From NCBI GenBank assembly GCA_964401045.1, contig CAYNXB010000001.1, positions 2,518-66,517 of the forward strand: a stretch of 64,000 nt of DNA. The letters run 5' to 3'. Positions 15,713-47,886 of the stretch are shown here, in pieces. This DNA is from an uncultured Sphingomonadaceae bacterium. Lineage in GTDB: Bacteria; Pseudomonadota; Alphaproteobacteria; Sphingomonadales; Sphingomonadaceae. Both the position numbers and the translations under genes were made by a program. The notes beneath the pieces were generated by a model that was not told where the DNA came from, did not search any database, and saw only the letters and a program-made list of their open reading frames with translations. Position 1 is the first letter of the stretch; every line of letters begins with the position of its first letter.

Positions 15713-15730
15713 TCCGGATATCTGCGTAAT
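15713..15730 (+). promoter_or_regulatory. conserved 18-bp box, copy 1 (TCCGGATATCTGCGTAAT); candidate regulator-binding site
   Basis: One of 12 related intergenic copies (see findings). It ends 52 nt upstream of the proposed start of the phosphorylase operon, in the divergent region shared with the HlyD/ABC operon. Confidence 0.45.
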
Positions 15731-15782
15731 TCGAACGGGAGCTGGCCGGTGCAAGAGCGGAGGGGAGACAGAGGCCCGAACA

Positions 15783-17267
15783 TTGCCAACCATTCGCCAC
15801 ATCCCGATCGATACTTACCCGGAAAACACTGCGTTCATGCTGCGCCGGGGCGACGGATATTCAGCCGAACAGTTCCAGGCGCTGCGCAAAATCCGGGTGA
15901 CCGCGCCGAACGCTGAAATCCTTGCGACCCTCGCGCTGGTGGACGACGCGCGCATCGTCGGGCTGGGCGAAATTGGGCTCGGCGAACAGGCGTACCGCCG
16001 CCTAGCCCAGCCCGAGGGGACAGACGTCAGCGTCGCGCAGGCGCAACCGCCCGCGAGCCTCGAGTTCGTCCGCCGCAAGATCGATGGAGACTCGTTTCAG
16101 GCGGCCGAGCTCGCTGCGATCGTCGGCGATATTGCGAACCACCGGTACTCACCGATGGAAATCGGCGTCTTCCTGGTGGCGTGCGCCGGCTTCATGAGCA
16201 CCGAGGAAACACTGTTGCTCACGCGCGCAATGATCGATGTCGGTGACAGGCTGCAGTGGGATTCCCCGCTGGTCGTGGACAAGCACTGCATCGGCGGCAT
16301 TCCCGGTAATCGCACCTCCATGATCGTGGTGCCTATCGTCGCCGCTCATGGGCTGATCTGCCCGAAGACCTCCTCTCGCGCAATCACATCGCCGTCTGGC
16401 ACGGCCGACGCGATGGAGGTGCTCGCGCAGGTCGATTTCACCGAAGCGCAGATGTCGGCAATTGTCGCGAAAGAAAAGGCAGTACTGGCATGGGGCGGAC
16501 GTGTGCGCCTGTCTCCGGCCGACGATGTCCTGATCTCGGTCGAGCGGCCGCTGAGGCTCGACACGTTCGAGCAAATGGTGGCGTCGATCCTGTCGAAGAA
16601 GGCCGCCGCCGGTTCGACCCACCTGGTGATCGACATCCCGGTTGGCCCAACCGCGAAGGTGCGTTCGCAGAATGACGCCGTACGACTGCGCAAGCTGTTC
16701 GAATATGTCGCGCGCCACATCGGCATTGTCACGGACGTCGTCTTCACCGACGGCTCCCAGCCCGTGGGCCGCGGGATCGGTCCGGTGCTGGAAGCGCGCG
16801 ACGTCATGCAGGTTCTACGTGGCGCCGCAGACGCGCCGGCGGACTTGCGCGAGCGGGCGATATTCCTCGCAGGGCGAGTGCTGGAATTCGATCCTGCGTT
16901 GCGAGGGGGGGACGGGCCGCGGCGTGCGCGCGAGCTGCTTGCCTCGGGCGCTGCGCTGGTGGCGATGGAGCGGTTGATCGAAGCGCAAGGGCGCCAGACG
17001 CAAGCCCTCGTCCCGGGAGCCCATACGTTCGAGGTGACGGCGCCCACCGGCGGCCAGGTCCTGGCGATCGATTGCGAACGCCTTGCGCGCATCGCCCGGC
17101 TCGCCGGTGCGCCAATGGACAAGGGCGCGGGAATCGACCTGCGGCACAAAGTGGGCGCCCGCGTGAAGCGGGGTGCGCCGCTCTATTGCATCCACGCCAG
17201 CGCGCCGGAAGGACTGCGCTTCGCCCGCGAGCTTGCCAGCGATGGCGCCGGATACCGCATCGCATGA
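15783..17267 (+). CDS. thymidine phosphorylase family protein (archaeal-type putative thymidine/AMP phosphorylase)
   Basis: TTG 15783 is the first in-frame start that keeps the conserved N-terminus (PTIRHIPIDTYPENTAFML). The long upstream part of track ORF 15240.. overlaps the HlyD gene. Motifs DKHCIGGIPGNRTS and TSSRAITSPSGTADAMEVL match the TIGR02645-type 'putative thymidine phosphorylase' group rather than canonical DeoA (recollection). Confidence 0.85.
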   Translation: MPTIRHIPIDTYPENTAFMLRRGDGYSAEQFQALRKIRVTAPNAEILATLALVDDARIVGLGEIGLGEQAYRRLAQPEGTDVSVAQAQPPASLEFVRRKIDGDSFQAAELAAIVGDIANHRYSPMEIGVFLVACAGFMSTEETLLLTRAMIDVGDRLQWDSPLVVDKHCIGGIPGNRTSMIVVPIVAAHGLICPKTSSRAITSPSGTADAMEVLAQVDFTEAQMSAIVAKEKAVLAWGGRVRLSPADDVLISVERPLRLDTFEQMVASILSKKAAAGSTHLVIDIPVGPTAKVRSQNDAVRLRKLFEYVARHIGIVTDVVFTDGSQPVGRGIGPVLEARDVMQVLRGAADAPADLRERAIFLAGRVLEFDPALRGGDGPRRARELLASGAALVAMERLIEAQGRQTQALVPGAHTFEVTAPTGGQVLAIDCERLARIARLAGAPMDKGAGIDLRHKVGARVKRGAPLYCIHASAPEGLRFARELASDGAGYRIA

Positions 17268-18154
17268 TCGCCGCGATCTTCGCCTTTGCGGAATCCAGCG
17301 TCCAGGCCGGTCGTCTGGCCGACGAGCTCGGCCTTCCAAATCGCGCCGTCACCGTCCACCGGTTCCCCGACCGTGAGAGCCTGGTCCGGGTCGAGCGATC
17401 ACCGCCCACGGCGCTCTTGTATCGCTCGCTCGACGATCCGAACGCCAAGCTGGTTGAACTGCTGCTGGCGGTTTCCGCCCTTCGCGCCAACGGAGCGGCC
17501 CGCGTGATCCTGATCGCGCCGTACCTTGGCTATATGCGGCAGGATCGCGCGTTCCAGCCGGGCCAGGCGGTTAGCCAGCAGGTGGTAGGGCGACTATTGG
17601 CCGAGCGCATCGACGCGCTGTTGACTGTCGATCCGCACCTCCACCGAACGCATTCGCTCAGCCAGGTGGTGCCCGGAATCCCCGCAGTTGCACTGTCCGC
17701 GGCGCCTGTGCTCGCAGCCGCGCTCGGTCTTGCCGACGATCCCCTGATCGCGGGGCCGGACGACGAATCCGCAGCCTGGCTCGAGGCCGTCGCAGCTCCG
17801 CTGGGTCTCGAAACCTTGCTCGGGGCAAAACAACGACGAGGTGATCGACAGGTCGAAATCAGCTTCGCGAACATCGAGCGGTGCAAGGATCGACACGTGG
17901 TCCTGATCGACGACCTCATCTCGAGTTGCGAGACGATGAGGGAGGCCGCCCTGCAATTGCGCAAAGCCGGAGCGGCCCGTGTCGAGGTGCTCGCCACCCA
18001 TTGCCTTTCCTCGGAGGCGGACCTTGTCCGCCTGACGGGCGCAGGCGTCTTGCGGGTTCGGGCGACCGATACGGTGCCGGGTCCCGCTGCCTCCTTACCC
18101 ATCGCGGGATTGCTGGCGTCGGCCATCCGTCATCAACGCTGGGCAGGAGAATAG
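17264..18154 (+). CDS. ribose-phosphate pyrophosphokinase family protein (Prs-like, divergent PRPP loop)
   Basis: ATG 17264 overlaps the upstream stop (ATGA). Prs-family motifs PYLGYMRQDR and TVDPHLH are present. The PRPP loop reads VVLIDDLISSCETM, with SCET in place of the usual TGGT. Confidence 0.8.
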   Translation: MIAAIFAFAESSVQAGRLADELGLPNRAVTVHRFPDRESLVRVERSPPTALLYRSLDDPNAKLVELLLAVSALRANGAARVILIAPYLGYMRQDRAFQPGQAVSQQVVGRLLAERIDALLTVDPHLHRTHSLSQVVPGIPAVALSAAPVLAAALGLADDPLIAGPDDESAAWLEAVAAPLGLETLLGAKQRRGDRQVEISFANIERCKDRHVVLIDDLISSCETMREAALQLRKAGAARVEVLATHCLSSEADLVRLTGAGVLRVRATDTVPGPAASLPIAGLLASAIRHQRWAGE

Positions 18155-18155
18155 C

Positions 18156-19793
18156 GTGTCCAAATACCCGATCTCGCTGACCTTTCATGGCGCGGCACGC
18201 ACCGTCACCGGATCATGCATGGAGTTTAGCCATGAAGGTCGGTCGCTCCTGGTCGATTGCGGCCTTTTCCAGGGCTCGCGGACGCTGGAGAGTCTCAACT
18301 CGGGCGATTTTGCCTTCGACCCCGGTCGGCTCGGGGGAGTCGTGCTCACTCACGCCCACCTCGACCACAGCGGGCTCCTGCCGAAGCTCGCGGCGCAGGG
18401 ATTCAAGGGCCCGATCTGGTGCACTCAGCCAACCGCCGATCTTCTGGAATACATGCTGGCGGACGCCGGCCGAATCCAACAGAACGAGGCAGAGCGGCGC
18501 AATCGCCGGCGTGACCGGGCCGGGGAAGTCCCATTCCTCCCGATTTATACCGAGGCCGACGCTCACGACGCCTGGCGCCTGTGCAAGCCCGTTGCGCTGG
18601 AGGAATGGTTCGAGCCGGTCCCGGGCTTTCGTGCGCGGCTGTGGAACGCCGGCCATATCCTTGGGGCTGCTTCGGTCGAGCTCCAGGCGGGCGGTGTCCG
18701 CATCCTGTGCTCCGGGGACATCGGCCCCGGGCACAAGGCGTTCCAGAACGCCCCGGAAGCCCCCCAAGGCTTCGATCACGTGATTTGCGAGGGAACTTAC
18801 GGCGATCGGCAACGCGACAGAGTCACGATGGAGGAGCGGCGCAAAACCTTGGAAGCCGAGGTGCGTGGTGCGCTGACTCGCGGCGGCAACCTTGTCATTC
18901 CCGCATTCGCGCTCGAGCGGACGCAGGAGCTGCTGCTCGATCTCGATTTCCTGCTGCGCTCGGGCGCAATTCCGGAAGTCCAGGTATTCGTGGATTCGCC
19001 GCTTGCAAGCGAAGTCACGAGTGTCTTCGCCCGTTATGCGCGCGAGTTGCAAGACACCGGCGGGCAAAACATCTTCGCTCACCCCGCATTCCATTTCGTC
19101 CGCGACACCGCCGAGTCCATCCGGCTCAACTCGGTTTCGGGCGCCATCATCCTCGCCGCGTCCGGGATGTGCGAGGGAGGGCGCATCCGCCACCACCTGA
19201 TCCACAATCTAGCGCGGCGCGATTCAACCATCCTGTTCGTGGGTTTCCAGGCGCAAGGCACGCTTGGTCGGGTCCTGCTCGAAGGTGCGAAGGCCGTCCG
19301 CATCTCGGGGGCCGATGTGCGCGTTCAGGCGCAGATCCGCAGGATCGAGCACTATTCGGCGCATGCCGACAAGGATGAATTGCTCGACTGGATCGAGCGA
19401 CGCATGCCCATCTCCGGATCGGTGTTAATCGACCACGGCGAACCGGAAGCGGTGGAAGCAATCCGTCGCGAGCTGCAGCGGCGCTGGTCCAGTTTGGCGG
19501 TCATGCTACCCGAGCTGGGCGATACGTTCGGGCTCGCCGCGCGCCAAGCCGCGAAGCGGCTCGCGAAGGGCAACGTGTCCTTGCACGAAACCGTCGGCAC
19601 CGATTGGCAAAACGCTTACGCGGATTTCGCGACCTCGCTCAAAACCAGATTGAGCGCCATGCGCGATGGGCGCCAGCGCCGGGAAGCGATCGAGGAGATG
19701 CGCAAGGTTCTCGAGAGCTACAATTCAGCGCGTCAGGAGCGCACGAAGCGCCACGCTGTTCCGGCATCGCGCCATAGGCGGCGGCATGAGTGA
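18156..19793 (+). CDS. MBL-fold metallo-hydrolase with beta-CASP / RNA-specificity domain (RNase J/CPSF-like)
   Basis: GTG 18156 lies 1 nt after the Prs-like stop. The HAHLDHSG (HxHxDH) motif, beta-CASP motifs (ICEGTYG, HYSAHAD) and a C-terminal RMMBL-like region are present. Confidence 0.88.
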   Translation: MSKYPISLTFHGAARTVTGSCMEFSHEGRSLLVDCGLFQGSRTLESLNSGDFAFDPGRLGGVVLTHAHLDHSGLLPKLAAQGFKGPIWCTQPTADLLEYMLADAGRIQQNEAERRNRRRDRAGEVPFLPIYTEADAHDAWRLCKPVALEEWFEPVPGFRARLWNAGHILGAASVELQAGGVRILCSGDIGPGHKAFQNAPEAPQGFDHVICEGTYGDRQRDRVTMEERRKTLEAEVRGALTRGGNLVIPAFALERTQELLLDLDFLLRSGAIPEVQVFVDSPLASEVTSVFARYARELQDTGGQNIFAHPAFHFVRDTAESIRLNSVSGAIILAASGMCEGGRIRHHLIHNLARRDSTILFVGFQAQGTLGRVLLEGAKAVRISGADVRVQAQIRRIEHYSAHADKDELLDWIERRMPISGSVLIDHGEPEAVEAIRRELQRRWSSLAVMLPELGDTFGLAARQAAKRLAKGNVSLHETVGTDWQNAYADFATSLKTRLSAMRDGRQRREAIEEMRKVLESYNSARQERTKRHAVPASRHRRRHE

Positions 19794-19893
19794 GCTGGCG
19801 CCTGCCCTGGTGTGGTGTTCGCAATCCGAAGCGGTGCTGCTCCATGCCCTCGGCAGCTCGCAGCAAGGGCTTTCACAAGATGAATCCCGTTGA
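19786..19893 (+). pseudogene. possible remnant of a P-type ATPase N-terminus (35 codons)
   Basis: ATG 19786 overlaps the MBL stop by 8 nt. MSELAPALVWCSQSEAVLLHALGSSQQGLSQDESR* matches the Cation_ATPase_N pattern W-x4-E-x-V/L-L-x2-L-x-S/T-x3-GLS-x2-E, then hits TGA. No ATPase body follows. Confidence 0.35.
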
Positions 19894-19990
19894 GTCTCGG
19901 GAGCTTCGAAGCCACCTCGACAGGTCTGCTGCACGTGCTCGGCGTGCCGATCGCGGCAGCGCTCTCGGCAACGATGCTGCTGCGTTTTGC

Positions 19991-20596
19991 TCAGTCTTTG
20001 GTTGCCGCCGTCTCGTGAGCGCGAAGCTTATCGCGAAACTCCTCAAGCCGGGCCCGATACCCTTCGGCATCGCCATACTCGAGGAACTCAAAATACCGGT
20101 GATGCGGATCGCTTACCCGCAGCGCGTGCTTGATCGGGCACCAATACTGCTCGGTCCGGCTCGCCACCTCGCGCACGTAGGCGATCAGTCCGTTCGCATA
20201 GCCGCAATAGAGGCAGTTGAGCGCTTCGATCCAGTTCAGATAGGCGAGGTGGCCCCGGTCGAGCGCGACATAGTCCGCCCTGCGCACGCGCGGAATTCCG
20301 TACGCCCGGAAACACACGGCCTGGTAGGCGCTGATCCACATATCGAGCACCAGCAGCGGAACGATCAGCGAATAGACGACCGGCGCGGACAGGTTTGTGG
20401 CGGAGGTTGAATCGGCCAGGAATCGCGCCGTGCCGATCCTGAACCTGCGTTGCTCGAGCGCCAGACCTTTCTCGAATTTGACGAGGCCATCCTTGAACGT
20501 CCATCCGAGCGCCTTGCGACGCCGTTCGATCTCCCGATCCAGCTCCTGCTGAAGGCGCACGATCTCGTCGGCCAGTTCGTGCATCCGCCTTGTCAT
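19991..20596 (-). CDS. hypothetical membrane protein (coiled-coil N-terminus, one or two TM helices, Cys-rich C-terminus)
   Basis: ATG 20596 is preceded by GGGAGGA. The 201-aa product has HELADEIVRLQQELDREIERRRKAL, a hydrophobic LSAPVVYSLIVPLLVLDMWISAY segment, then LNCLYCGYANG...YWCPIKH. No family was recognised. Confidence 0.6.
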   Translation of the reverse strand: MTRRMHELADEIVRLQQELDREIERRRKALGWTFKDGLVKFEKGLALEQRRFRIGTARFLADSTSATNLSAPVVYSLIVPLLVLDMWISAYQAVCFRAYGIPRVRRADYVALDRGHLAYLNWIEALNCLYCGYANGLIAYVREVASRTEQYWCPIKHALRVSDPHHRYFEFLEYGDAEGYRARLEEFRDKLRAHETAATKD

Positions 20597-20659
20597 GAAT
20601 CCTCCCGCGCAGTTGGAAGCCTCGACCACGTTCGATAGCCGGGTCTCCGGAACGGCAAA

Positions 20660-21691: not shown

Positions 21692-21815
21692 GCCCGCGCC
21701 TCTTGGCCAAAGGGAGATTCAGTGCCGCGTCGATGCGGCGAGCCATCGCCGGAGCGCATGATGGTTTGCGGCGCTTTCAAGCGGCCTTGATGATCCTGCT
21801 GCGGGTTTGGCCCTA

Positions 21816-21833
21816 TGCGGATTGTTACGTAGC
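21816..21833 (+). promoter_or_regulatory. conserved 18-bp box, copy 2 (TGCGGATTGTTACGTAGC)
   Basis: Lies in the adh / receiver divergent region, 109 nt upstream of copy 3. It matches the box consensus at the invariant positions T1, G4 and T11. Confidence 0.35.
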
Positions 21834-21924
21834 TCGGGCCGATCCCGCGCTCCTCTTGGGCGGTTCCCTTTGCCGCACAGCGCCGAACGTTCGCGCCGGG
21901 CACGGGCGCGGACCTCGCCTCGTT

Positions 21925-21942
21925 TCCGGATATTTGCGTAAT
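21925..21942 (+). promoter_or_regulatory. conserved 18-bp box, copy 3 (TCCGGATATTTGCGTAAT)
   Basis: 17/18 identical to copy 1. It ends 47 nt upstream of ATG 21990. Confidence 0.45.
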
Positions 21943-21989
21943 GCCGGAGAGCAGGGATCCTCCGACTAAAGGCTGGCAAGGAGGAAGCC

Positions 21990-22358
21990 ATGCCCCACGC
22001 GTTGATCGTCGAGGACAACATGATAGTGAGCCGTGCGGTGGAAGATCGCCTGCTTCCGCTGGGCTTCGATTCTTTCGACCATGCATGGACCGCGCAACAG
22101 GCACTTCGGGCCGCCGAACAACGGCCGCCAGACCTGGTCATCATCAGCGATGATGTCGCCGGCTCATCGCCCGAACGGCTTGCCCGGCAAATATCCGATC
22201 GGCGTGGCTCCGCGATCGTTTTGATTACAGGAGCAAAGTGCGCTCCTTACCAACCGTCCTCCGAAGCCCCTGCGAACAGCTCGCGCTTCCCCCTCAGCGA
22301 TATCGATCAGGCCGTCGCGCTTTCTGCCCGGCAGGTCTGCAAACCGCAGGCGGCATGA
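21990..22358 (+). CDS. single-domain response-regulator-like protein (atypical receiver)
   Basis: AAGGAGGAAG RBS. 122 aa with ALIVEDN, DLVIISDD and IVLITG. The usual K-P motif position reads RFP, so the conserved Lys appears to be missing. Confidence 0.7.
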   Translation: MPHALIVEDNMIVSRAVEDRLLPLGFDSFDHAWTAQQALRAAEQRPPDLVIISDDVAGSSPERLARQISDRRGSAIVLITGAKCAPYQPSSEAPANSSRFPLSDIDQAVALSARQVCKPQAA

Positions 22359-22418
22359 TCGCGGGGCGCGGCGATGGCTGCCAATCATAGCCGCCCGGGC
22401 GAAAGGGTGGGAGTGTCG

Positions 22419-24163: not shown

Positions 24164-24181
24164 TCCGGTTATGTGCGTAGT
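24164..24181 (+). promoter_or_regulatory. conserved 18-bp box, copy 4 (TCCGGTTATGTGCGTAGT)
   Basis: Lies in the divergent region between the cytochrome c'-like gene and the USP/ATPase pair, 164 nt upstream of ATG 24346. Confidence 0.4.
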
Positions 24182-27423: not shown

Positions 27424-29268
27424 ATGAGCTTGCGTCGGGTCTTGGTTGAATCGACCGCCGCGAGATACGGGCTCTCGGCAATCGCCGTCGGCGCCGCCTA
27501 TCTCGTCCGACTGGCCGCGGATCCTATCCTCGACCAGAAGGCGCAGTTCCTTCCCTATGTGTTGCCTGTCGTTCTTGCCACCGTGGTCGCGAGGCTGGGT
27601 CCGGGCCTTTTTGCCGGATTTCTCTCGCTGATCGCCGGATTCAGCATGATCGATGCAAGCAGCCGGTTTTCCTCGGCGTCGCTTATCCAGGCGGGAATGT
27701 TCGTACTGGTATCGGCCGGGGTTTGTTGGCTCGATAGTCGACGTTCGTCGCAGAGGATGCTTGCCACGAGAGCGAATCGCCAGCTCAAGCTGCTGGTCGA
27801 AGGGGCAACCCAGTATGCGATATTCATGGTCGACCCGGTGGGGCGCATTATCAGCTGGAATGCCGGGGCTGAACGAATTCTCGGCTGGGCAAGAGGCGAG
27901 GTTCTGGGCCGACATTGCTCGCTGGTATTGAGCGGGCCGGAGACCGCGGAAAGAATGGCGGCACAGCTTGACACCGCGAAGCGCGAGGGTCGCTTTACCG
28001 AAGAGACCTGGCACAGGCGCGCCGATGGCTCGGAGTTCATCGCCGACATCTCGCTCACCTCCATCACGGACGACGACGGCACACACCTGGGCTTCGCCAA
28101 AGTCATCTACGATGTGACCGCGCGCAAGGCCGAGGAACGCGCACTTCAGCGGCGTGAGGAGCACCTGAAGTCGATCCTCGCAACCGTTCCCGACGCGATG
28201 ATCGTGATCGACGAAAAGGGCATCATCCTGTCCTTCAGCCAGGCCGCCGAGCGCCTCTTCGGCTATGCGGAAGCCGAGGTTGCCGGCAAGAACGTCAGCA
28301 TCCTGATGCCCCAGCCCGATCGCGACCGGCACGACGGGTATCTGGAGCGCTATCTCGCGACCGGCGTTCCACGTATCATCGGAATCGGCCGGCTCGTAAC
28401 CGGCTTGCGCGCCGACGGCAGCACATTCCCCATGGCCCTGTCCGTCGGCGAGGCGCACGCGGCCGACCAGCGGCTGTTCACCGGTTTCATCCAGGACCTG
28501 ACCGAGCGCCGCGATTTCGAGGCTAAGCTCGAGCAACTCCAGTCCGAGCTGATACACGTCTCTCGCCTGAGCGCGATGGGCACCTTGGCGTCGACGCTGG
28601 CGCATGAACTGAACCAGCCTCTTACCGCGATCGCCAGCTTCGGTGAGGCCGCCGCGGCCGTGCTGGAGCGCCCGGGCGACCCGGACAAGGCCATGCTGCG
28701 CGACGTGATGCGCGACATGACCGAGCAATCGCTCAGGGCGGGCGCCATCGTACGGCGCCTGCGCGAGTTCGTGTCCAAGGGCGACTTTGCCAAGACGTCC
28801 GAGGATCTCGCGAAAGTGATAGAGGAGGCAAGCGCGCTCGCCCTCGTCGGCGCGAGAGAGAAAGGGATTGCGGCCCACTTCACGTTCGCGCCCGATGCCA
28901 CGCCCGTGCTGATCGACCGCGTCCAGATCCAGCAGGTCCTGATCAACCTGATGCGAAACGGACTCGAGGCCATGGAGGGTATGCCGAGCAGGCGGCTAAG
29001 CGTGACAACCTCGCTGCTCGACGAGAATACCGTGCAGGTGTCCGTCGCCGACACCGGATGCGGAATCGATCCGCAAGTGAAGGCGCATTTGTTCGAAGCC
29101 TTCAACAGCAGCAAGAAGACAGGGATGGGATTGGGCCTGTCGATCTGCAGGACCATCATCGAAGCGCACGGGGGACGTATACGAGCCCTCGATGGCATTG
29201 ATGGAGGGACGGAGTTCCAGTTCACCTTGATGCGCGCGCGAGCCGCCGGCACGGACCCGCGCACGTGA
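27424..29268 (+). CDS. fixL: oxygen-sensor histidine kinase FixL (membrane N-domain, PAS, heme-PAS, HisKA, HATPase)
   Basis: The heme-PAS block [55 protein letters not shown] aligns residue-for-residue with my recollection of Bradyrhizobium FixL, including the proximal His in DRHD. H-box LAHELNQPL and the G-boxes are present. Confidence 0.9.
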
Positions 29269-29876
29269 AACTCGTTCATGTCGTCGATGACGAAGAGCCG
29301 ATCCGCCGCGCGACGCAGATGATGCTGAATGTCATGCGCTATGAAGCTCTGACCTACCCTTCGGGATACTCGTTTCTCGATGCCCTTATGGACCTGTCGC
29401 CGGGTTGCGTGCTGCTGGACCTACGCATGCCCGAAATCGATGGCCTCGAGGTCCAGCGTAGGTTGCAGAAGAAAGGCTGCGACTTGCCAGTGGTCTTGAT
29501 GAGCGGACACGGAGATCTGACCGTGGCGGTCACGGGGATGGAGCAAGGAGCCGTGGCGTTCCTGGAAAAGCCTTTCCCGCGAGCCGCGCTCGAGCAGACT
29601 CTGGAAATAGCGTTCCTGCGGCTCGATGATAGCAACGGTTACAACCGATATCTCCAATCGGCCGCCGCCGCGGTCGGGAAGCTCGAGCCGATCGACCGGC
29701 AGGTGCTTGAGCTGATCGCGCGTGGCCAGGATGCAGATGCCATCGCTCAGCGCACCGGCTTGCCCGCGTTGTCGATCGAAATGTCCCGCTCGCGAATATT
29801 CGCGGACCTGGGGGCAACGTCGGTCACGGAAGTGCTGCGGATCGCTTTTGCCGCCGCTCGGGCCCCGACGGGTTAG
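29265..29876 (+). CDS. fixJ: FixJ-family response regulator (REC + LuxR-type HTH)
   Basis: GTG 29265 overlaps the fixL stop (GTGA). It has [29 protein letters not shown] and FLEKPF, with a C-terminal LuxR/GerE HTH. Confidence 0.88.
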
Positions 29877-29890
29877 GATGTATACGTAAC
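29873..29890 (+). promoter_or_regulatory. conserved 18-bp box, copy 5 (TTAGGATGTATACGTAAC)
   Basis: Overlaps the fixJ stop codon and ends 56 nt upstream of GTG 29947. Confidence 0.4.
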
Positions 29891-29946
29891 GACGCATCCG
29901 CTGCGTCGGCTATCCCGCAATCTGAACATTCAGGGATGGGCCCAGC

Positions 29947-30345
29947 GTGGTCGTGAGTGAACCGTCCGAGACACAGTCGCGAATTCTTCTGGTCGAGGAC
30001 GACGACGCGGTGCGGCGAAGCATTCAGCTGCTTTTGCACTCGCATGGCTTTGAAGTCCGGGCGTATCCGTCTGCCTTCGACCTCGCGAAAGACCCGGCAG
30101 CGCTCCGCTGCGCCTGTCTTGTCGCTGACCTTGTGATGCCGGACACGGACGCGGTTCAATTGCTCGCCGAGCTCAGGAAAGCCGGCTGGGCCGGCCGGTC
30201 GATCCTGATCAGCGGCTATCTGGGCAGCGAACGGGATGCAGACGTGCGGGCCGCGGGCTTCGACATGGTGCTGGCCAAGCCCATCAGCGATTCTGTCCTG
30301 GTTCGGGCCGTGGCCGAAGTGATCGGCGGTCCAGCGGCCCGCTGA
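29947..30345 (+). CDS. single-domain response regulator
   Basis: GTG 29947; 132 aa with ILLVEDDD, LVADLVMPD, ILISG and LAKP. Confidence 0.8.
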   Translation: MVVSEPSETQSRILLVEDDDAVRRSIQLLLHSHGFEVRAYPSAFDLAKDPAALRCACLVADLVMPDTDAVQLLAELRKAGWAGRSILISGYLGSERDADVRAAGFDMVLAKPISDSVLVRAVAEVIGGPAAR

Positions 30346-30443
30346 AGGCTGTGTTCGATCCGCCCTGTCCCGGTGCCGCCTGTTCCGTGTTCGTCCAGCT
30401 GGTGTTGCCCGGAGAAGGAGCAGCGGCCGCCGGGATGCTCTAC

Positions 30444-30461
30444 TCCGGATATATCCTGAGT
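30444..30461 (+). promoter_or_regulatory. conserved 18-bp box, copy 6 (TCCGGATATATCCTGAGT)
   Basis: Ends 54 nt upstream of ATG 30516. It belongs to the duplicated upstream region shared with copy 12 at 35955. Confidence 0.45.
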
Positions 30462-30515
30462 TACCGGTATTCGAGCCGCATCTAAGTCGAGCCGGGCACC
30501 TGAGGAGGTTCGGCC

Positions 30516-31325
30516 ATGCGGTCCATTCTGCTTCACATCGACGACGACGCCTGTCTCGACGCGCGCATCGCAGTCGCGCTCGATCTCGCGCGGGCCTTCG
30601 ATGGGCACGTCACCTGCGTCCAGGCGATGCCGTTCGTGATCGGCATGCCAGGCGATCTCTATGGCACGATCGCGGCGCAGATGCTGCCCGAGTTTCGCGA
30701 ACTGGCCGACAAGCTGCGTGCGCGGATCGAGGCCCATCTCATCAAGGAGGATGTCAGCTGGAGCTGGGTGCAGGACGATGGACCGGCGATCGAGCGGCTG
30801 CTGCAATACACCGGCCTCAGCGACATTGCCGTGATCGGCTGCTGCGATCCCCTTCGCAAGGGCTACGCACCGCTCACGGGAGACCTCGTCCTCCGCTCGC
30901 GCACGCCGGTCCTGATCGTTCCCCCCAAAGCGGCCGGCTTCGATACCGATAGTCCGGCGGTCGTCGCATGGGACGGCTCGCCTGAGGCCCGCCGGGCACT
31001 GCGTGCCGCGGTGCCGCTGCTCGCCCGCTCGCAGGCAGTCACTCTGGCGACCGTCCGTGAGCCGTCCGAGCGGAAGCACGATCTGCCTCCGACCGATGGC
31101 GCCGAGTATCTTTCACGCCACGGCATCTCCTGTGAGATCGTCGAGTTGCCGGCATCGGAATCGATTGCCCGAGTGCTCACCGACGCCGCGTTGGTGCGCC
31201 GTGCCGGTTACCTCGTGATGGGCGCATACGGCCATGCCCGGCTCCTCGAGACGATCTTTGGAGGGGTCACGCGCGAGTTGCTCGCTCACCCGCCGGTACC
31301 CCTGCCGATTCTGGCTTGTCACTGA
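30516..31325 (+). CDS. universal stress protein (tandem Usp domains)
   Basis: GAGGAGG RBS; 269 aa with two Usp-like halves (ILLHIDDD..., AVVAWDGSPEA..., YLVMGAYGHARLLETIFGGVTRELL). It is a paralog of 36024-36833. Confidence 0.88.
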   Translation: MRSILLHIDDDACLDARIAVALDLARAFDGHVTCVQAMPFVIGMPGDLYGTIAAQMLPEFRELADKLRARIEAHLIKEDVSWSWVQDDGPAIERLLQYTGLSDIAVIGCCDPLRKGYAPLTGDLVLRSRTPVLIVPPKAAGFDTDSPAVVAWDGSPEARRALRAAVPLLARSQAVTLATVREPSERKHDLPPTDGAEYLSRHGISCEIVELPASESIARVLTDAALVRRAGYLVMGAYGHARLLETIFGGVTRELLAHPPVPLPILACH

Positions 31326-31407
31326 GGTTGATCGGGAAGGCAGGCGATGCACGCGCGACCGCGCTCGATCTCCCGCTTGGCGAGCGGCACGCGGTCGACC
31401 GTGGTGC

Positions 31408-32070
31408 TTATTCAGGGCGCCGCTGGCCGACCTTGTACTGCTTCTTCCACGCGTCCTCCGATCCCATGCCGGCGACGAACGCCACGCGCAGGGCATCGGC
31501 GAAGTTGGTCACCTCGAGCTTGGTCATCACGTTCGCCCGATAGACTTCGACAGTGCGCGAGCTGATCCCTAGGTCGTAGGCGATCGTCTTGTTCGGATAC
31601 CCGCAGGCGAGGCCTTCGAGCACCTCGCGCTCGCGCTCGGTCAGCGCACCAATTTGCGTCCTGGCCCATTGCTCGCGCTGACGCTGCGCCGCCTTGTCGG
31701 ACAGCTGCGCATGACCAGTCTCGATCGAATCAAGCACACGTTGGCGATTGAACGGCTTCTCGAGGAAGTCGACCGCACCCCGTTGCATTGCCCTCACGGC
31801 GGTCGAGATGTCACCGTGCCCCGTGACCACGATCACCGGCAGGTTGATCCCCTGCTCGGCCATCGCCGCCTGGACTTCGAGCCCATCCATGCCGGGCATG
31901 CGCACGTCCAGCAACACGCAGGCAGGCCGCGCCCGTTCGACTCCCTTGAGGAACGCGATGCCGTCTTCCCAGCGTTCGACGGCGAAGCCGGCCGAGCGCA
32001 GCATGAAATCGAGCGAGCGCCGCACGGCGTCATCGTCGTCAACCACGTGGACCAGCTTATCCTGCGACAT
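31408..32070 (-). CDS. FixJ-family response regulator (REC + LuxR-type HTH), second copy
   Basis: ATG 32070 follows GGAGG. It has VHVVDDDD, CVLLDVRMPGMDG, VIVVTGHGD and FLEKPF, with the HTH TEREREVLEGLACGYPNKTIAYDLGISSRTVEVYR. The N-terminal extension of track ORF 31408..32601 overlaps the cupin gene region and is rejected. Confidence 0.88.
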   Translation of the reverse strand: MSQDKLVHVVDDDDAVRRSLDFMLRSAGFAVERWEDGIAFLKGVERARPACVLLDVRMPGMDGLEVQAAMAEQGINLPVIVVTGHGDISTAVRAMQRGAVDFLEKPFNRQRVLDSIETGHAQLSDKAAQRQREQWARTQIGALTEREREVLEGLACGYPNKTIAYDLGISSRTVEVYRANVMTKLEVTNFADALRVAFVAGMGSEDAWKKQYKVGQRRPE

Positions 32071-32126
32071 GGTTGCCTCCACCTGCCCTTCGCGCGCCCT
32101 ATCCCTCGCTCGACACCGGCGCATCA

Positions 32127-32144
32127 TCCGTAGATTTGCGAATG
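32127..32144 (+). promoter_or_regulatory. conserved 18-bp box, copy 7 (TCCGTAGATTTGCGAATG)
   Basis: Lies in the divergent region between the second fixJ-like gene and the cupin gene. It ends 85 nt upstream of ATG 32230. Confidence 0.35.
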
Positions 32145-32229
32145 GCGAAGATCGCCGGACGCGGCAAAGCTGGTGGACGTCACATAGCTCGCCCACACCC
32201 GGCGAGCAAACTGCGAAAGGGATAGGCCG

Positions 32230-32625
32230 ATGCGTGGTTTCGTCGGAAATATCGAAGACCTGACCGAGGAGAACGAGGATTTCCGGCGCGTGCTCTACAC
32301 CGGGCACCAGCTCCAGCTGGTGGTCATGGCCATCGGACCGGGCGAAGAGATCGGCGAGGAGGTCCATACCGACCGGGACCAGTTCTTCCGGGTCGAGGAA
32401 GGCAAGGGCGAGGTGTGGATCGACGGCGTGTGCCACGAGGTCGAGGGCGACTACGGCGTGATCGTTCCGCAGGGCGCGCGGCACAACGTGAAGTGCACCG
32501 GCCACAAGCCGCTCCGCCTGTATACGATCTACGGCCCGCCCGAGCATCTCGACGGCACCGTCCACGCCTCCCGCAAGGACGCCGCGGCGGCGCACGAGCA
32601 CTTCGACGGCGTTACGACCGAATAG
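32230..32625 (+). CDS. cupin domain-containing protein
   Basis: 131 aa. The cupin motifs are EEVHTDRDQFFRVEEG (G-x5-H-x-H-type region) and VIVPQGARHNV. Confidence 0.8.
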   Translation: MRGFVGNIEDLTEENEDFRRVLYTGHQLQLVVMAIGPGEEIGEEVHTDRDQFFRVEEGKGEVWIDGVCHEVEGDYGVIVPQGARHNVKCTGHKPLRLYTIYGPPEHLDGTVHASRKDAAAAHEHFDGVTTE

Positions 32626-32727
32626 CCCGTATTCGCGGCAGCGGTTTCCTCAAAAGGAGGATGGGTCGTAGCGGCCCGGAAGCCAGAGTTCGGTCGCAAC
32701 CTCGGACCGGGGGGCCGCGGTCAGCTG

Positions 32728-33159
32728 TCAGTCCACCGGCGGCAGGACGGGGCCGATTGCACCGTCCCATCCGTCGGTCGAGGCGATCCGCGTGACCCGG
32801 AACGGCAGCTGCTCGCCGGTGGGCTCGGTGAGGGTGACGTATTCCCCGGGCCGCAGCGGATGGGCTTCGAGGTGGAACAGGTCCTCGTCGTCATCCTCGC
32901 CGATCGCGTAGGAGAAGGCCCAGGTCGCGCCGGTACGGATCACGTAGCCCTGCTGGTCCGGCTCGTCGGGCCAGAACCGCTTGACCGTGGCCATGGCCGG
33001 ATTGCGGCCGACTTCGTCCGCGTCGATGAGACCGTCGGCGGTGAGCGGCAGCCGCAGGATGAGCGCGCGGCTCGGCGAGCCCTCGGGAAACTCGGCCGTG
33101 CGCGCCAGCTCAAGGCGAATGATCTTCCAGTCGGAATGGCGGTGCCGGTCGTAACTCAT
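32728..33159 (-). CDS. hypothetical protein
   Basis: 143 aa, with codon usage like its neighbours. It is last in a co-directional trio with the two genes upstream. No family was recognised. Confidence 0.55.
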   Translation of the reverse strand: MSYDRHRHSDWKIIRLELARTAEFPEGSPSRALILRLPLTADGLIDADEVGRNPAMATVKRFWPDEPDQQGYVIRTGATWAFSYAIGEDDDEDLFHLEAHPLRPGEYVTLTEPTGEQLPFRVTRIASTDGWDGAIGPVLPPVD

Positions 33160-33226
33160 GAAGAGTCCCTGGCCGAAGGTGAGTACCGCACGACACTGGG
33201 AAATATACGGAAGGGCCCAGCGCGCA

Positions 33227-33799
33227 TCACCTCTGGTCCTTGCGCGCGGCGATGCGTTCCCAGTCGACCTTCACGAAGGCGACAAGCAGCGCGATCATCG
33301 CAACTTGCAGCGCCACGCCCCACGGCGACGACAAGTGTTCGAGCATCACATCTCCGAGAGTGTGATCGCGCAGCGTGCGCGCCGCGCCGGCATAGATCGA
33401 GTAGGAAACCAGGCGTCCGGCGAAGAAGGCCGCCGTGAATCCCAGCAGGCGAACGCCGGTGAGCCCGGCCGCTTCGAACAGTTGCGCAGAGGGGAGGGGC
33501 GACAACGCGAAGATGCCGATTGCCATGACGCCCGCGCGCGGGCGTCGCTCGAACGCCTCGCGGGCCGCAGCGAGGTTGCGACGCAGCTTCGCGGGCACGC
33601 GCCGGCCCAGCAATCGGAACCCGTGAGCCAGCAGCAGCCGTCCAATGGCGGCCCCCAGCGCACTGACAACGATCAGCCCCGGCAAGGAAAGGTCGGTGCT
33701 GAGTCCGAAAGCGGCGATGATCGACCACGTCGGCGGGCCGAATGCGGGCATCAGGTTCACCGCCAGCACCAGCGCGAAGAGGATCAGATAGAGTTCCAA
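33227..33799 (-). CDS. membrane protein (possible DedA/VTT-like), start uncertain
   Basis: Five or six hydrophobic helices (NLMPAFGPPTWSIIAAF..., MAIGIFALSPLPSAQLF...). TTG 33799 was chosen because it is the first start after the upstream stop at 33823. Alternatives are GTG 33769 and ATG 33751. Confidence 0.5.
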   Translation of the reverse strand: MELYLILFALVLAVNLMPAFGPPTWSIIAAFGLSTDLSLPGLIVVSALGAAIGRLLLAHGFRLLGRRVPAKLRRNLAAAREAFERRPRAGVMAIGIFALSPLPSAQLFEAAGLTGVRLLGFTAAFFAGRLVSYSIYAGAARTLRDHTLGDVMLEHLSSPWGVALQVAMIALLVAFVKVDWERIAARKDQR

Positions 33800-33822
33800 G
33801 ACCCGATTCCGGCGTGTGCCGG

Positions 33823-34401
33823 TTACATGCCGGCCATGCCCAGCTCCCTCATTTCCCGCAGCCATGCTCCGCGCTTGATATCGTTCGAATCGACCAGGCC
33901 GATGATTGATTCACCGACCACGCTTATCCCAACGCCGCGCAGGATGTTGCGCTCGAGGCTCTTGAGGCTGTGCGCGCGATAGACCAGCCGGTAGAAGAAC
34001 GCCGGCATGCCCATGGTTACAACGATGCGCGCCGAGCGGCCCTTGAGCAGCTTCCGCGGCAGGCCGTTCTGGCGATAGCTCAGCGCGAAGCCCGGCCGCA
34101 TGACCTGCTCCAGGAAGCCTTTGAGCAGCGCGGGGATGTCACCGAGCCATAGCGGATAGAGGAACACGACATGCTGGGCCCAGGCGATGTCCTCCTGTGC
34201 CCTTGCGATGACCGCGGGAGGCTGACCATCCGCCCAGTCGTGCGCGCTGCGCAGCAGCGGAAAGTCGAGGTCGGCGAGCCTGATCAGCCGCGTTTGATGA
34301 TCGCTCGCGCCGTCGAGATAGGCGGCGGCGAGCGCGTGCACGAACCGCGCGGGATCAGGATCCGGATGCGCATCGATGACCAGGATTCGGTCGGTGGACA
34401 T
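33823..34401 (-). CDS. flavodoxin-like fold NAD(P)H dehydrogenase (quinone) family protein
   Basis: ATG 34401 follows GAGGAGG. 192 aa with ILVIDAHPDP..., VVFLYPLWLGDIPALLKGFLEQV, typical of the Flavodoxin_2 / KefF-MdaB-type family. The 231-codon extension of track ORF 33823..35094 is rejected. Confidence 0.8.
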   Translation of the reverse strand: MSTDRILVIDAHPDPDPARFVHALAAAYLDGASDHQTRLIRLADLDFPLLRSAHDWADGQPPAVIARAQEDIAWAQHVVFLYPLWLGDIPALLKGFLEQVMRPGFALSYRQNGLPRKLLKGRSARIVVTMGMPAFFYRLVYRAHSLKSLERNILRGVGISVVGESIIGLVDSNDIKRGAWLREMRELGMAGM

Positions 34402-34482
34402 GCGAGCCTCCTCAGAAGGGACAGCAGGCGCCTCGGTCTTGCGGGGGAAAGGGACGGCGAGGCGCCTGCCGCGCCGATGTCC

Positions 34483-34543
34483 TCCGGATCCGTCGCTCGC
34501 GGCATCGGGAATGTTACGGAGCGCCTCGGGAACATTACCGATG
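34483..34543 (+). promoter_or_regulatory. array of three phased box copies (8-10): TCCGGATCCGTCGCTCGC, TCGGGAATGTTACGGAGC, TCGGGAACATTACCGATG
   Basis: Copies start at 34483, 34505 and 34526, i.e. 22 and 21 bp apart (two helical turns). The array lies 82-142 bp upstream of the quinone reductase start on the other strand and 68 nt upstream of small ORF 34612. Confidence 0.4.
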
Positions 34544-34611
34544 CCCAACGTCGCAGCGCGGCAGCCATGATCGGACGGAACGCCGCTGCGCGGCACAAGG
34601 GAGATCGAGCC

Positions 34612-34728
34612 ATGTTCGCCGGCGGGTACAGCGATCGGAAGCTTTCCCAAGGCCGGTATCGGGTCACTTTCACCGGCAACCGGCTGACCTCGCGTGAGAT
34701 CCGCCCCGACGCCCACTATCGACCGTGA
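34612..34728 (+). CDS. possible small protein (38 aa)
   Basis: AAGGGAG lies 8 nt upstream of ATG 34612. The product is MFAGGYSDRKLSQGRYRVTFTGNRLTSREIRPDAHYRP. It may be a gene remnant (see findings). Confidence 0.3.
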   Translation: MFAGGYSDRKLSQGRYRVTFTGNRLTSREIRPDAHYRP

Positions 34729-34743
34729 TCGAAGGAGAGTCCC

Positions 34744-34911
34744 ATGGCCAGCATCCCGCCTGACAAGCCGAACCGCGTCGACCCCCAGTCGCCGCCCGAG
34801 CGGCGACAGCCACCAGAACCGGCCATCCCTCCGGCGCTTCCCGAGACAGAACCGGACGCCCCGGATGTCGACGAGCCCGGCCGTTGCCCGGACGAATGCC
34901 CTCCTGAGTGA
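34744..34911 (+). CDS. possible small Pro/Glu-rich protein (55 aa)
   Basis: GAAGGAGAG RBS and GC3-rich codons. The product is MASIPPDKPNRVDPQSPPERRQPPEPAIPPALPETEPDAPDVDEPGRCPDECPPE. It shares the reading frame of ORF 34612, separated by one TGA and five codons. Confidence 0.35.
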   Translation: MASIPPDKPNRVDPQSPPERRQPPEPAIPPALPETEPDAPDVDEPGRCPDECPPE

Positions 34912-34925
34912 AGCGCACGCGGGCC

Positions 34926-34943
34926 TCCGGATAATTCCGCATG
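34926..34943 (+). promoter_or_regulatory. conserved 18-bp box, copy 11 (TCCGGATAATTCCGCATG)
   Basis: Ends 74 nt upstream of the BON gene ATG 35018. Confidence 0.4.
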
Positions 34944-35017
34944 TCTTGCCCACCCGACACCCGGCAATCTCGATCCACCGGCGCCAGTAAAAGGCCGCGA
35001 GAACACAGGAGATACCC

Positions 35018-35668
35018 ATGGACCAGGATAGAGTGCTGCAACGCAAGGTGATCGCCGAGCTCGAGTGGGAGCCCGCGGTCGAGTCCGCCGACATTGGCGT
35101 TTCCGTCGTGGACGGCGTCGTCGCCCTGTCGGGCTACGTGAAGAGCTACGCCGAGAAGCTCGCGGCCGAGCGGGCGGTTCGCCGCGTCGCGGGCGCTAAG
35201 GCGATCGCCGAGGAGCTCAAGGTCCGGTACGACACGGACGCGAAGACTGCGGATCACGAGATCGCCAGGCGCATCCTCGACGTGTTCGGCTGGAACGTGC
35301 TGCTCCCCAAGGACAAGCTCCAGGTCAAGGTCGAGAACGGCTGGGTGACGCTCAGCGGTGAAGTCGAGTGGCAGTACCAGAACCACGAAGCCAAGCGTGT
35401 CGCCGCGCAGATCAACGGCGTCACGGGAGTCTCGAACAACATTACCATCAAGCAGCGCCTGCACCCCAGCGACGTGCGCAAGCAGATCGAAGACGCCTTC
35501 GAACGGCAGGCCGGCCTCGACGCGCGCGGCGTGATCGTGGCGGTCGACGGCCACAAGGTGACGCTGAGCGGCCAGGTGCATGCCTGGTTCGAGCGCCAGG
35601 CCGCCGAACGCGCCGCCTGGGCCGCGCCCGGCGTCACCCAGGTGGTCGACCGGATCGCGGTAAACTGA
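35018..35668 (+). CDS. BON domain-containing protein (three BON repeats, OsmY-like, no signal peptide seen)
   Basis: CAGGAGATACCC RBS; 216 aa. It has three repeats of the pattern ...V.V..G.VTLSG.V....... (VVDGVVALSGYV, VENGWVTLSGEV, VDGHKVTLSGQV). Confidence 0.88.
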   Translation: MDQDRVLQRKVIAELEWEPAVESADIGVSVVDGVVALSGYVKSYAEKLAAERAVRRVAGAKAIAEELKVRYDTDAKTADHEIARRILDVFGWNVLLPKDKLQVKVENGWVTLSGEVEWQYQNHEAKRVAAQINGVTGVSNNITIKQRLHPSDVRKQIEDAFERQAGLDARGVIVAVDGHKVTLSGQVHAWFERQAAERAAWAAPGVTQVVDRIAVN

Positions 35669-35674
35669 CGACCG

Positions 35675-35704
35675 GCGCCCGCCGGCAGCGCAGTCGGCGG
35701 GCGC
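35675..35704 (+). terminator. GC-rich hairpin downstream of BON gene (no U-tract)
   Basis: Perfect 10-bp stem GCGCCCGCCG / CGGCGGGCGC with a 10-nt loop, starting 7 nt after the stop. No T-run follows, so the terminator call is tentative. Confidence 0.4.
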
Positions 35705-35954
35705 GCACAATCGATCGGGCAATTCGCCGGCGCGTCCGGTCCGGCGTGGCGGAGCAGGCCGGCCTGCGCCTGCGCCTCGCACCGCAGCGGCATCGGTGCT
35801 CAGGCCGACGATGATCGTCGCCAATTGCGGCCGCGATGGAGGTTTGCGAAGCGGTCCGCGCTGTCCCGGTAACCTGACGGCGCCTGCTCGTCGCTCCCCC
35901 CTCAGCTGCCTCCCTGAAGATCGATAATCGCGGGGCGCTGCCTCGGCAGGCGCT

Positions 35955-35972
35955 TCCGGATATCTCCGGAGT
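35955..35972 (+). promoter_or_regulatory. conserved 18-bp box, copy 12 (TCCGGATATCTCCGGAGT)
   Basis: Ends 51 nt upstream of ATG 36024. The flanking ...GTTACCGG... is shared with copy 6. Confidence 0.45.
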
Positions 35973-47885: not shown

Positions 47886-47886
47886 C

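Follow-up and report, generated by a model that had tools for sequence, protein, structure and literature searches.

Gene content of the locus and the intergenic box

The 64-kb window analyzed here is a 64,000-nt stretch of contig CAYNXB010000001.1 (assembly GCA_964401045.1, positions 2,518 to 66,517) from an uncultured Sphingomonadaceae bacterium, and it contains a stress gene block in which a short box, of the type bound by the response regulator FixJ, recurs between the genes. All scans for the box in this organism covered this window, and positions are numbered from its first nucleotide. The gene map, based on codon-position GC, codon usage and Pfam, leaves 11.4% of the window intergenic; overall GC content is 66%. 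As judged by Pfam, the block (15.7-38.6 kb) has genes for a thymidine-phosphorylase-like protein, a phosphoribosyl pyrophosphate (PRPP) synthetase-like protein and a beta-CASP hydrolase, two zinc alcohol dehydrogenases (ADH1 and ADH2), a cytochrome c', a single Usp protein (Usp1) followed by a P-type ATPase, two tandem-Usp proteins, a cupin, a triple-BON protein and a DedA-type membrane protein, with GNAT and YkuD transpeptidase genes after the tandem-Usp gene at 36024. A PAS-PAS histidine kinase gene, fixL, occupies the centre of the block.

The initial annotation listed twelve copies of an 18-bp box, described as non-palindromic, intergenic, exclusively on the + strand and confined to the stress block. 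Each of these twelve 18-mers is present exactly where it was reported, and the same column counts were obtained, with T1, G4 and T11 present in 12/12 copies and G5, A6, C13 and A16 in 11/12. Every copy is intergenic, that at 29873 overlapping only the stop codon of fixJ1, and the eight distances reported from a box to a start codon (about 48-85 nt) were reproduced with the independent gene map. A degenerate core, TNCGNANNNNTNCGNA, has 7 matches in the window where 1.13 are expected, a number that was reached in 0/100 shuffles. The most enriched 6-mers include TCCGGA (8 versus 1.2 expected), TGCGTA, GGATAT, TCCGTA and TACGTA, none of which is individually significant after Bonferroni correction.

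To avoid circularity, a position weight matrix (PWM) was constructed from 39 distinct boxes located at fixJ stop codons in other genomes, with the window excluded (the external PWM). It gives 16 strand-hits of >=12 bits in the window versus 1.9 in shuffles, and its 12 best non-overlapping matches are all intergenic, with a probability of ~5e-12 given 11.4% intergenic DNA. Ten of the top 11 matches are sites listed in the initial annotation. The boxes are restricted to 15.7-36.0 kb, and the confinement to the block, which holds for these 64 kb, was therefore correctly described; the sole outside match is at 54969. The list itself required some revision. One box, at 33196-33211, had been overlooked, whereas the copy at 34483 has only a good left hexamer, scores 0.2 bits in a leave-one-out test and is absent from the external-PWM list. 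With its removal, the three copies said to be phased at 21-22 bp become a pair, 34505 and 34526, with a spacing of 21 bp. The copy at 24164 is retained as a probable rather than a firm box because it is a near-copy of those at 15713 and 21925, including the upstream 'cgtt' that these three boxes have in common. The resulting tally is eleven firm or probable boxes plus 33196, associated with ~ten transcription units and ~25 genes (Table 1).

Table 1. Predicted FixJ boxes, given as 16-bp cores, and signalling genes of the block. Distances are from the box centre to the start codon.
Feature	Position	Strand	Core sequence	Location or description	External PWM (bits)	Distance (nt)
FixJ box	15713..15728		TCCGGATATCTGCGTA	Upstream of phosphorylase-PRPP synthetase-beta-CASP operon	14.0	62.5 (start 15783)
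FixJ box	21816..21831		TGCGGATTGTTACGTA	Divergent ADH1(-)/Rec1(+) region	14.7	132.5 (ADH1 start 21691)
FixJ box	21925..21940		TCCGGATATTTGCGTA	Upstream of Rec1 and ADH2	17.5	57.5 (start 21990)
Weak/probable FixJ box	24164..24179		TCCGGTTATGTGCGTA	Between cytochrome c'(-) and Usp1-ATPase(+)	5.4	160-175 (both starts)
FixJ box	29873..29888		TTAGGATGTATACGTA	Overlaps fixJ1 stop, upstream of Rec2; best external-PWM match	21.6	66.5 (start 29947)
FixJ box	30444..30459		TCCGGATATATCCTGA	Upstream of tandem-Usp gene 30516	19.6	64.5
FixJ box	32127..32142		TCCGTAGATTTGCGAA	Divergent fixJ2(-)/cupin(+) region	13.3	64.5 (fixJ2 start 32070); 95.5 (cupin start)
FixJ box	33196..33211		CTGGGAAATATACGGA	Intergenic, upstream of 32728-33159 (-)	14.7	44.5 (start 33159)
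FixJ box	34505..34520		TCGGGAATGTTACGGA	First of tandem pair, 21 bp apart; between unk192(-) and small ORFs 34612-34911(+)	16.5	111.5 (unk192)
FixJ box	34526..34541		TCGGGAACATTACCGA	Second of tandem pair; 18-mer ends 69 nt before small ORF 34612	14.0	
FixJ box	34926..34941		TCCGGATAATTCCGCA	Upstream of triple-BON gene	13.8	84.5 (start 35018)
FixJ box	35955..35970		TCCGGATATCTCCGGA	Upstream of tandem-Usp gene 36024	16.1	61.5
Rec1	21990..22358	+		Degenerate receiver-only protein, box upstream; Pfam Response_reg 4.1e-4, below curated cutoff		
fixL	27424..29268	+		DUF4118-PAS-haem PAS-HisKA-HATPase oxygen-sensor kinase (Pfam)		
fixJ1	29265..29876	+		fixL-linked; receiver domain (REC) plus diverged LuxR-type helix-turn-helix (HTH); FixJ 5xso E = 7.5e-33 overall		
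Rec2	29947..30345	+		Single-domain receiver, box upstream; Pfam Response_reg 8.3e-14		
fixJ2	31408..32070	-		Canonical FixJ, REC plus GerE; FixJ 5xso E = 5e-51		

The box is an imperfect palindrome

The description of the box as non-palindromic is wrong, because the conserved positions are dyad partners, T1 with A16, G4 with C13 and A6 with T11 in a 16-bp core. Over the twelve copies, 59/96 of the core pairs are complementary (27.6% expected, P = 4e-12), and the PWM made from the twelve copies (the window PWM) gives most of them a score on the complementary strand too, at an offset of -2. In architecture the core is hexamer-N4-hexamer (6-4-6), an imperfect palindrome of 16 bp whose hexamers are of the type T-N-N-G-N-A, exemplified by TCCGGA, TCGGGA, TACGTA and TGCGTA. 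The best dyads are those at 30444 (TCCGGATATATCCTGA) and 35955 (TCCGGATATCTCCGGA), each with 7/8 pairs, and TCCGGATATATCCTGA is one base short of perfect. Because the box is a dyad, its strand is meaningless, and the observation that all copies lie on the + strand carries no information; the boxes at 32127 and 33196, and probably those at 21816 and 34505/34526, face minus-strand genes. The orientation of the two unequal halves relative to the downstream gene is kept in orthologous promoters but not between promoters, and there is no general strand rule.

Relation to experimentally defined FixJ sites

The FixJ site at the S. meliloti fixK promoter was defined experimentally, by footprinting, as the 16-mer TAAGTAATTTCCCTTA (Kurashima-Ito 2005, quoted in PMC4999443). 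Split into hexamers and spacer it reads TAAGTA-ATTT-CCCTTA. On the external PWM this site scores 22.3 bits (P ~5e-6 for a random 16-mer). Two classes of FixJ-binding motif, GTAGTTTCCC and GTAMGTAG, were obtained by systematic evolution of ligands by exponential enrichment (SELEX; Tsoy et al. 2016, PMC4999443), and they fit the box solely in registers that align with its hexamers. Phylogenetic footprinting has identified an 18-bp imperfect palindrome in Rhizobiales and Caulobacterales (PMC4999443), and the R. palustris fixK promoter, which is bound by FixJ in electrophoretic mobility shift assays, carries GTACGTAG (PMC13327599). Taken together, the PWM scan, the score of the S. meliloti site and the register fit of the SELEX motifs indicate that the boxes in the window, the boxes adjacent to fixLJ in 80 genomes and the experimental FixJ site are one family. 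The initial annotation had proposed a DNA-binding regulator on the strength of phased copies, and box sequence and architecture do match those of the experimentally defined FixJ sites. By these comparisons the box is an element of an already known kind, a FixJ box, and not a new kind of element. It is, however, not upstream of fixK here, unlike in the species studied, as there is no fixK gene in the window; a scan of 56 window proteins gave no FixK or other CRP/FNR-family member, and fixK could be encoded outside the window.

Conservation of boxes at other fixL loci

The comparison set consisted of 80 fixL loci from other genomes, the closest being those of Sphingomonas deserti (63% protein identity) and Sphingosinicella (60%), which places the window in a sphingomonad-like alphaproteobacterium. 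These loci have 164 box matches versus 33 in shuffles, and in a second scan 134/184 matches fell within the ~25% of the DNA that is intergenic. In most of the 75 fixLJ loci, a box overlaps or directly follows the fixJ stop codon and precedes a receiver-only gene, an arrangement that spans sphingomonads, Caulobacter, Microvirga and Bosea. Alignment of the loci on this box gives high information content at positions 1-17 and values close to zero on either side.

With a threshold that gives a background of 3.2% per 220-nt upstream region, a box is present upstream of 51/92 Rec2 homologues, 22-23/33 tandem-Usp homologues (many at 63.5-67.5 nt, compared with 61.5 and 64.5 in the window), 6/9 cupin homologues and 2/3 homologues of unk192 (33823-34401), and upstream of 2/5 BON, 4/14 GNAT and 2/17 ADH homologues. 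Homologues, in the same loci, of genes internal to operons have no upstream box. Pairs of box and gene persist between orders whose proteins are 40-70% identical, with flanking DNA that has no information content. In Sphingopyxis granuli (locus L039) there are eight boxes around fixLJ, and in Caulobacter zeae (L012) there are seven, some before ADH and Usp-cupin genes. The C. zeae homologue of ADH1 has a box at 62.5 nt, and the box at 21816 in the window probably serves ADH1; the fixJ2 homologue of Sphingosinicella (L002) has one at 82.5 nt.

These results bear on whether the copies might be no more than chance similarities, or relics of promoter duplication, with no regulatory role. There are indeed copies that such an origin would fit: 34483 is spurious, three boxes have a common 'cgtt' flank, and those at 30444 and 35955 were duplicated along with paralogous Usp genes. 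But the external PWM recovers the sites, every top match is intergenic and the box-gene pairs are retained across orders where the flanks are not, so that we regard this explanation as very improbable and, for the set as a whole, chance and duplication are ruled out. The two tandem-Usp units (30444-30530 and 35955-36040) have paralogous box flanks and agree in Shine-Dalgarno sequence and in their opening codons (gttaccgg...aggag(g)ttcggccATGcggtccatt); from this sequence likeness, promoter and gene were clearly duplicated jointly.

A second conserved element is present at +37 to +42 past the box at the fixJ stop codon (L006-L075). In sphingomonads it is TGACAT, in the window this place is occupied by GCTATC, and in five Microvirga loci (L018, L021, L024, L028 and L034) a full-length box of the FixK type, TTGAC-N4-ATCAA, is found there. 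In Rhizobiales, FixJ and FixK may therefore jointly control the receiver gene. Upstream of fixL in Sphingosinicella (L002, 9838-9863) there are three half-sites at 10-bp spacing (TAGGGActatTACGGAggtaTCCTTA) that form two overlapping boxes, and fixL thus appears to be box-controlled there, unlike fixL in the window.

FixL, the FixJ paralogues and the receiver proteins

The second PAS domain of the kinase matches the haem domain of B. japonicum FixL (1dp6, E = 1.6e-47; 8js5, 3.5e-53). The proximal-histidine region is kept, with RHDGYLERY aligned to RHDSYISRY, IGIGR is conserved, and HisKA and HATPase_c domains are present (Pfam). Judged from these alignments, the kinase is a haem FixL with an intact haem pocket.

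FixJ is the best solved relative of both FixJ1 and FixJ2, and the two differ in their DNA-binding domains. The C-terminal domain of FixJ2 matches that of S. meliloti FixJ (1x3u) with E = 1.3e-16, and its recognition helix, RTVEVYRANVMTK, is nearly identical to RTVEVHRANVMAK of S. meliloti FixJ. The fixJ2 start codon is the ATG at 32070, with GGAGG upstream. FixJ1, encoded by a gene translationally coupled to fixL, has a FixJ-like REC, but its C-terminal domain matches 1x3u only at E = 0.011 and lacks the FixJ recognition helix. This diverged type of HTH is found only in the closest relatives, L001 and L002; the fixL-linked FixJ is canonical in 66/68 loci. The canonical copy in the window is located apart from fixL and has its own box, while the fixL-linked copy has diverged, which looks like duplication with subfunctionalisation. 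On these comparisons FixJ2 is most likely the protein that binds the boxes.

Three nearby FixJ/LuxR-type regulators had been put forward as candidates, and of these FixJ2 has the helix of S. meliloti FixJ. The third is the REC-GerE regulator at 46763-47407, encoded together with a receiver-only protein and a histidine kinase in a separate two-component unit (46763-49614) that has no FixJ boxes within 10 kb and is probably unrelated to them. That the boxes are nevertheless bound by a LuxR/NarL-type regulator other than FixJ2, either FixJ1 with a re-tooled HTH or the regulator at 46763-47407, with FixJ2 not the effector, could be argued from the physical coupling of FixJ1 to fixL, the conservation of its diverged HTH in the clade formed by the window, L001 and L002, the unusual richness of the window boxes in TCCGGA, and the GerE domain of the third regulator. 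We consider this unlikely. The same box family is present in the 66/68 loci that have only a canonical fixL-linked FixJ, the boxes of L001 and L002 resemble those of the canonical-only genomes, and the boxes match the experimentally defined site of canonical FixJ; the third regulator belongs to its own response regulator-receiver-kinase unit.

Rec2 is kept directly after fixJ in 71 loci. Receiver-only FixT, which is induced through the FixLJ pathway, inhibits the autophosphorylation of FixL in Caulobacter and so provides negative feedback (PMC7078487), and because the Rec2 box is conserved in most genomes, a similar negative feedback is suggested for Rec2, which by analogy is a candidate FixT-like component.

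Other regulatory signals

The window was also scanned for sequences that might offer a different account of the boxes. There is no FixK/FNR/Anr box (TTGA-N6-TCAA) in the 64 kb. A DosR box (GGGACT-N2-AGTCCC) has one match with 2 mismatches, versus 2.43 expected, and this lies outside the block. The Rfam scan of the window found no family.

The initial annotation had argued that the box is a regulator site and not a sigma-70 or sigma-54 promoter, and this is borne out by a 6-4-6 dyad like that of FixJ sites and by both promoter consensus sequences being at chance level, sigma-70 in the intergenic DNA of the block and sigma-54 (TGGCAC-N5-TTGC, <=2 mismatches) with 72 matches versus 66 expected. 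As Usp and BON are typical general-stress genes, and the box at 34526 contains GGAAC, the box might still contribute to a promoter that uses an alternative sigma factor, such as EcfG or sigma-54. The element is, however, a dyad, which promoters are not, and within it GG and GC are spaced by 8, not by 11 as in sigma-54 promoters. The EcfG promoter sequence GGAAC-N16/17-CGTT has 3 matches in the window, none of them in intergenic DNA of the block, where GGAAC-N15-18-CGTT is likewise absent. A role in such a promoter is thus barely conceivable.

Proposed regulation of the block

The boxes are probably sites for FixJ dimers, through which FixL-FixJ would directly activate ~10 promoters (~25 genes) in a block of hypoxia and stress genes. 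When oxygen is low, the haem kinase FixL would autophosphorylate and transfer the phosphate to FixJ, with canonical FixJ2 as the likeliest DNA binder, and dimers of phosphorylated FixJ on the boxes would then activate the promoters directly, with no FixK intermediate. The predicted targets are the phosphorylase/PRPP-synthetase/beta-CASP operon, the two alcohol dehydrogenase units, Usp1 with the P-type ATPase, the two tandem-Usp genes, the cupin and BON genes, two minus-strand units of membrane or unknown function, the two receiver-only genes and, given the box in the divergent fixJ2/cupin region, fixJ2 itself, which would be positively autoregulated. Rec2 may act back on FixL in the manner of Caulobacter FixT.

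At six boxes the centre is 57.5-66.5 nt away from a start codon with a strong Shine-Dalgarno sequence. Because this distance leaves room for only a short leader, the centre of the box would lie near -42 to -45 and overlap the -35 region. The two boxes at 34505 and 34526, 21 bp and hence two helical turns apart, would align two dimers on the same helical face. Consensus sigma-70 promoters after the boxes are lacking, as is expected of activator-dependent promoters.

The position over the -35 region would also suit an operator, and there is a precedent in R. palustris, where the nifH and nifA promoters are repressed by unphosphorylated FixJ bound to them (PMC13327599). The boxes could on this basis be sites at which FixJ, possibly unphosphorylated, silences the block in air. 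We think this distinctly improbable, as the boxes neither cover nor precede a consensus sigma-70 promoter, FixJ activates fixK and nifA in all other systems studied (PMC4999443, PMC7078487), and a content of Usp, BON and ADH genes is typical of genes induced by low oxygen (PMC3721108).

Several observations weigh against direct activation of the block by FixL-FixJ. FixJ binding, activation rather than repression, induction by low oxygen and the geometry are all inferred from sequence, and the R. palustris precedent leaves the sign of regulation debatable. The fixL-linked FixJ1 has a diverged HTH, so the cognate partner of FixL may not bind the boxes. There is no recognisable -10/-35 pair after any box, and several boxes are >100 nt from any start codon, which makes their assignment to genes tentative. 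The window boxes are richer in TCCGGA than the boxes of other genomes, and TAAGTAATTTCCCTTA scores only 9.9 bits on the window PWM (P ~6e-5). Gibbs sampling of 34 intergenic regions gave weak support for the motif, recovering only its left half (TTCCGGATAT), in 5 regions and from 1/6 seeds, with the remaining seeds collapsing. As members of duplicated promoter-gene units, the boxes at 30444 and 35955 are not independent, and the box at 24164, which has T and not A at position 6, is weak on the external PWM (Table 1), although it scores 15.0 bits on the window PWM.

Related systems and implications

In S. meliloti, Bradyrhizobium and Caulobacter, as in the window, a haem FixL is paired with a REC-GerE FixJ, and the FixJ box, located in those species at the fixK and nifA promoters, is a 16-18-bp imperfect palindrome with hexamers of the same type, whose half-sites the SELEX motifs fit. 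The systems differ in their targets, since those studied relay the signal via FixK, whereas the window has ~12 boxes before ~10 units of stress or dormancy type and no fixK. In the studied systems fixK is the sole conserved FixJ target, and the study that states this gives no FixJ motif for Sphingomonadales (PMC4999443). A direct FixJ stress regulon appears to be undescribed in the open-access literature, although the element itself is known.

A 16-bp inverted arrangement is also found in the 7-2-7 sites of NarL, which have the heptamer TACYYMT. These sites resemble the box in that a GerE-type response regulator binds them as a dimer, but differ in heptamer sequence, regulator and signal. In the dormancy regulon of Mycobacterium tuberculosis, haem sensor kinase(s) act through DosR/DevR on a palindromic box located directly upstream of many Usp-rich units. 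DosR/DevR belongs to the NarL/FixJ family (PMC3029386). Its regulon is like the block in the window in having a haem sensor, a NarL/FixJ-family regulator, Usp, P-type ATPase and phosphoribosyl-transferase-type genes, and, as proposed for the block, a flat organization that serves hypoxic persistence. It is unlike it in that the DosR box is absent here, the mycobacterial sensors bind haem in GAF and not PAS domains, and the phylum is different. The similarity is thus an analogy and not membership.

The low-oxygen-activated (lxa) locus of Burkholderia cenocepacia, which is needed for anoxic survival, has ~50 genes, among them six Usp genes and genes for ADH, nucleotide metabolism, membrane and transport proteins and regulators, with a motif at 17 intergenic points that is Anr/FNR-like (TGA-N6-TCA) (PMC3721108). 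Both loci are blocks of similar gene content with one motif, but the lxa motif is Anr/FNR-like whereas that in the window is a FixJ-type dyad. As an explanation of the window the lxa system was rejected, as its gene content is analogous but a motif of its type is absent from the window. ICE3, a 'stress-response' element of Sphingopyxis granuli TFA, has a cargo that includes multiple USP genes, cytochromes and fixL/fixJ and is common to Sphingomonadales and Rhizobiales (bioRxiv 10.64898/2025.12.11.693706). The preprint describes gene content and expression, with no cis-element or FixJ regulon (bioRxiv 10.64898/2025.12.11.693706). The window is like ICE3 in its USP and fixL/fixJ genes but differs in that no integrase or conjugation genes were found within it.

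Third-position GC falls from 0.81-0.88 in the housekeeping region (1-12 kb) to 0.70-0.79 (12.3-40 kb) at a tRNA-Leu(GAG) gene (12174-12260), and because of this drop the block is perhaps part of an acquired island. Direct repeats derived from the tRNA-Leu gene that would mark island borders were not found within the window. We tentatively suggest, as a possibility that we would not yet call probable, that the block is a self-contained, horizontally spreading FixL-FixJ module for hypoxic persistence, with no FixK tier, and an alphaproteobacterial counterpart of the mycobacterial DosR regulon. In such a module FixJ would have been duplicated into a canonical, autoregulated FixJ2 that binds DNA and a fixL-coupled FixJ1 with a re-tooled HTH, and the two box-controlled receivers would be phosphate sinks or kinase inhibitors.

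FixJ is a textbook regulator of the oxygen response, yet its DNA motif has so far been poorly defined. This locus and its relatives each contribute about a dozen boxes, hundreds when all genomes are combined, and from these the 6-4-6 dyad can be defined precisely. If the proposed regulation is real, FixJ would control Usp, BON, cupin, ADH and nucleotide-salvage genes of sphingomonads and Caulobacter directly and independently of FixK, and bacteria of the soil that are strictly aerobic would possess a persistence programme like that of DosR. Many of the stress genes that anoxia induces in S. granuli TFA do not depend on FnrN or FixK (PMC7713065), and FixLJ is not mentioned in a further paper on S. 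granuli (PMC6472365); neither paper links FixLJ to these genes. A direct FixJ regulon, if it exists, could explain such Fnr-independent induction. Such a regulon is a testable prediction and not a new principle, and a FixLJ specialist might have expected it.

Additional elements

Two small open reading frames (ORFs), 34612-34728 (38 amino acids) and 34744-34911 (55 amino acids, proline-rich), are located downstream of the tandem boxes at 34505/34526. Each is preceded by a Shine-Dalgarno sequence, and both are absent from the gene-caller output. Neither is conserved in the 80 fixL loci, where the ORF at 34612 has no significant match.

The match at 54969 was rejected as a FixJ box. It is situated within AACGGTAA/TTACCGT repeats (54960-55010) in the intergenic region between a TetR gene (54295-54927, -) and an HlyD-MFS-OEP efflux operon; these repeats are probably a TetR operator that matches the FixJ matrix by chance. 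A dyad inside the beta-CASP gene (18538-18553, TCCCGATTTATACCGA) scores 14.5 bits on the window PWM and only 7.2 on the external PWM, and is probably also a chance match, although an internal site is conceivable. The only matches in a plasmid database were PAS-domain fragments with 76% identity, located on plasmids of sphingomonads.

In Microvirga sp. KLBC 81 (L024, 19785-21180), a box-like 16-mer, TC[AG]GCAATGTTACG[AC]A, also present in L021 (20241) and L034 (20830), recurs three times at 276-bp intervals, with a similar fourth copy 827 bp upstream.

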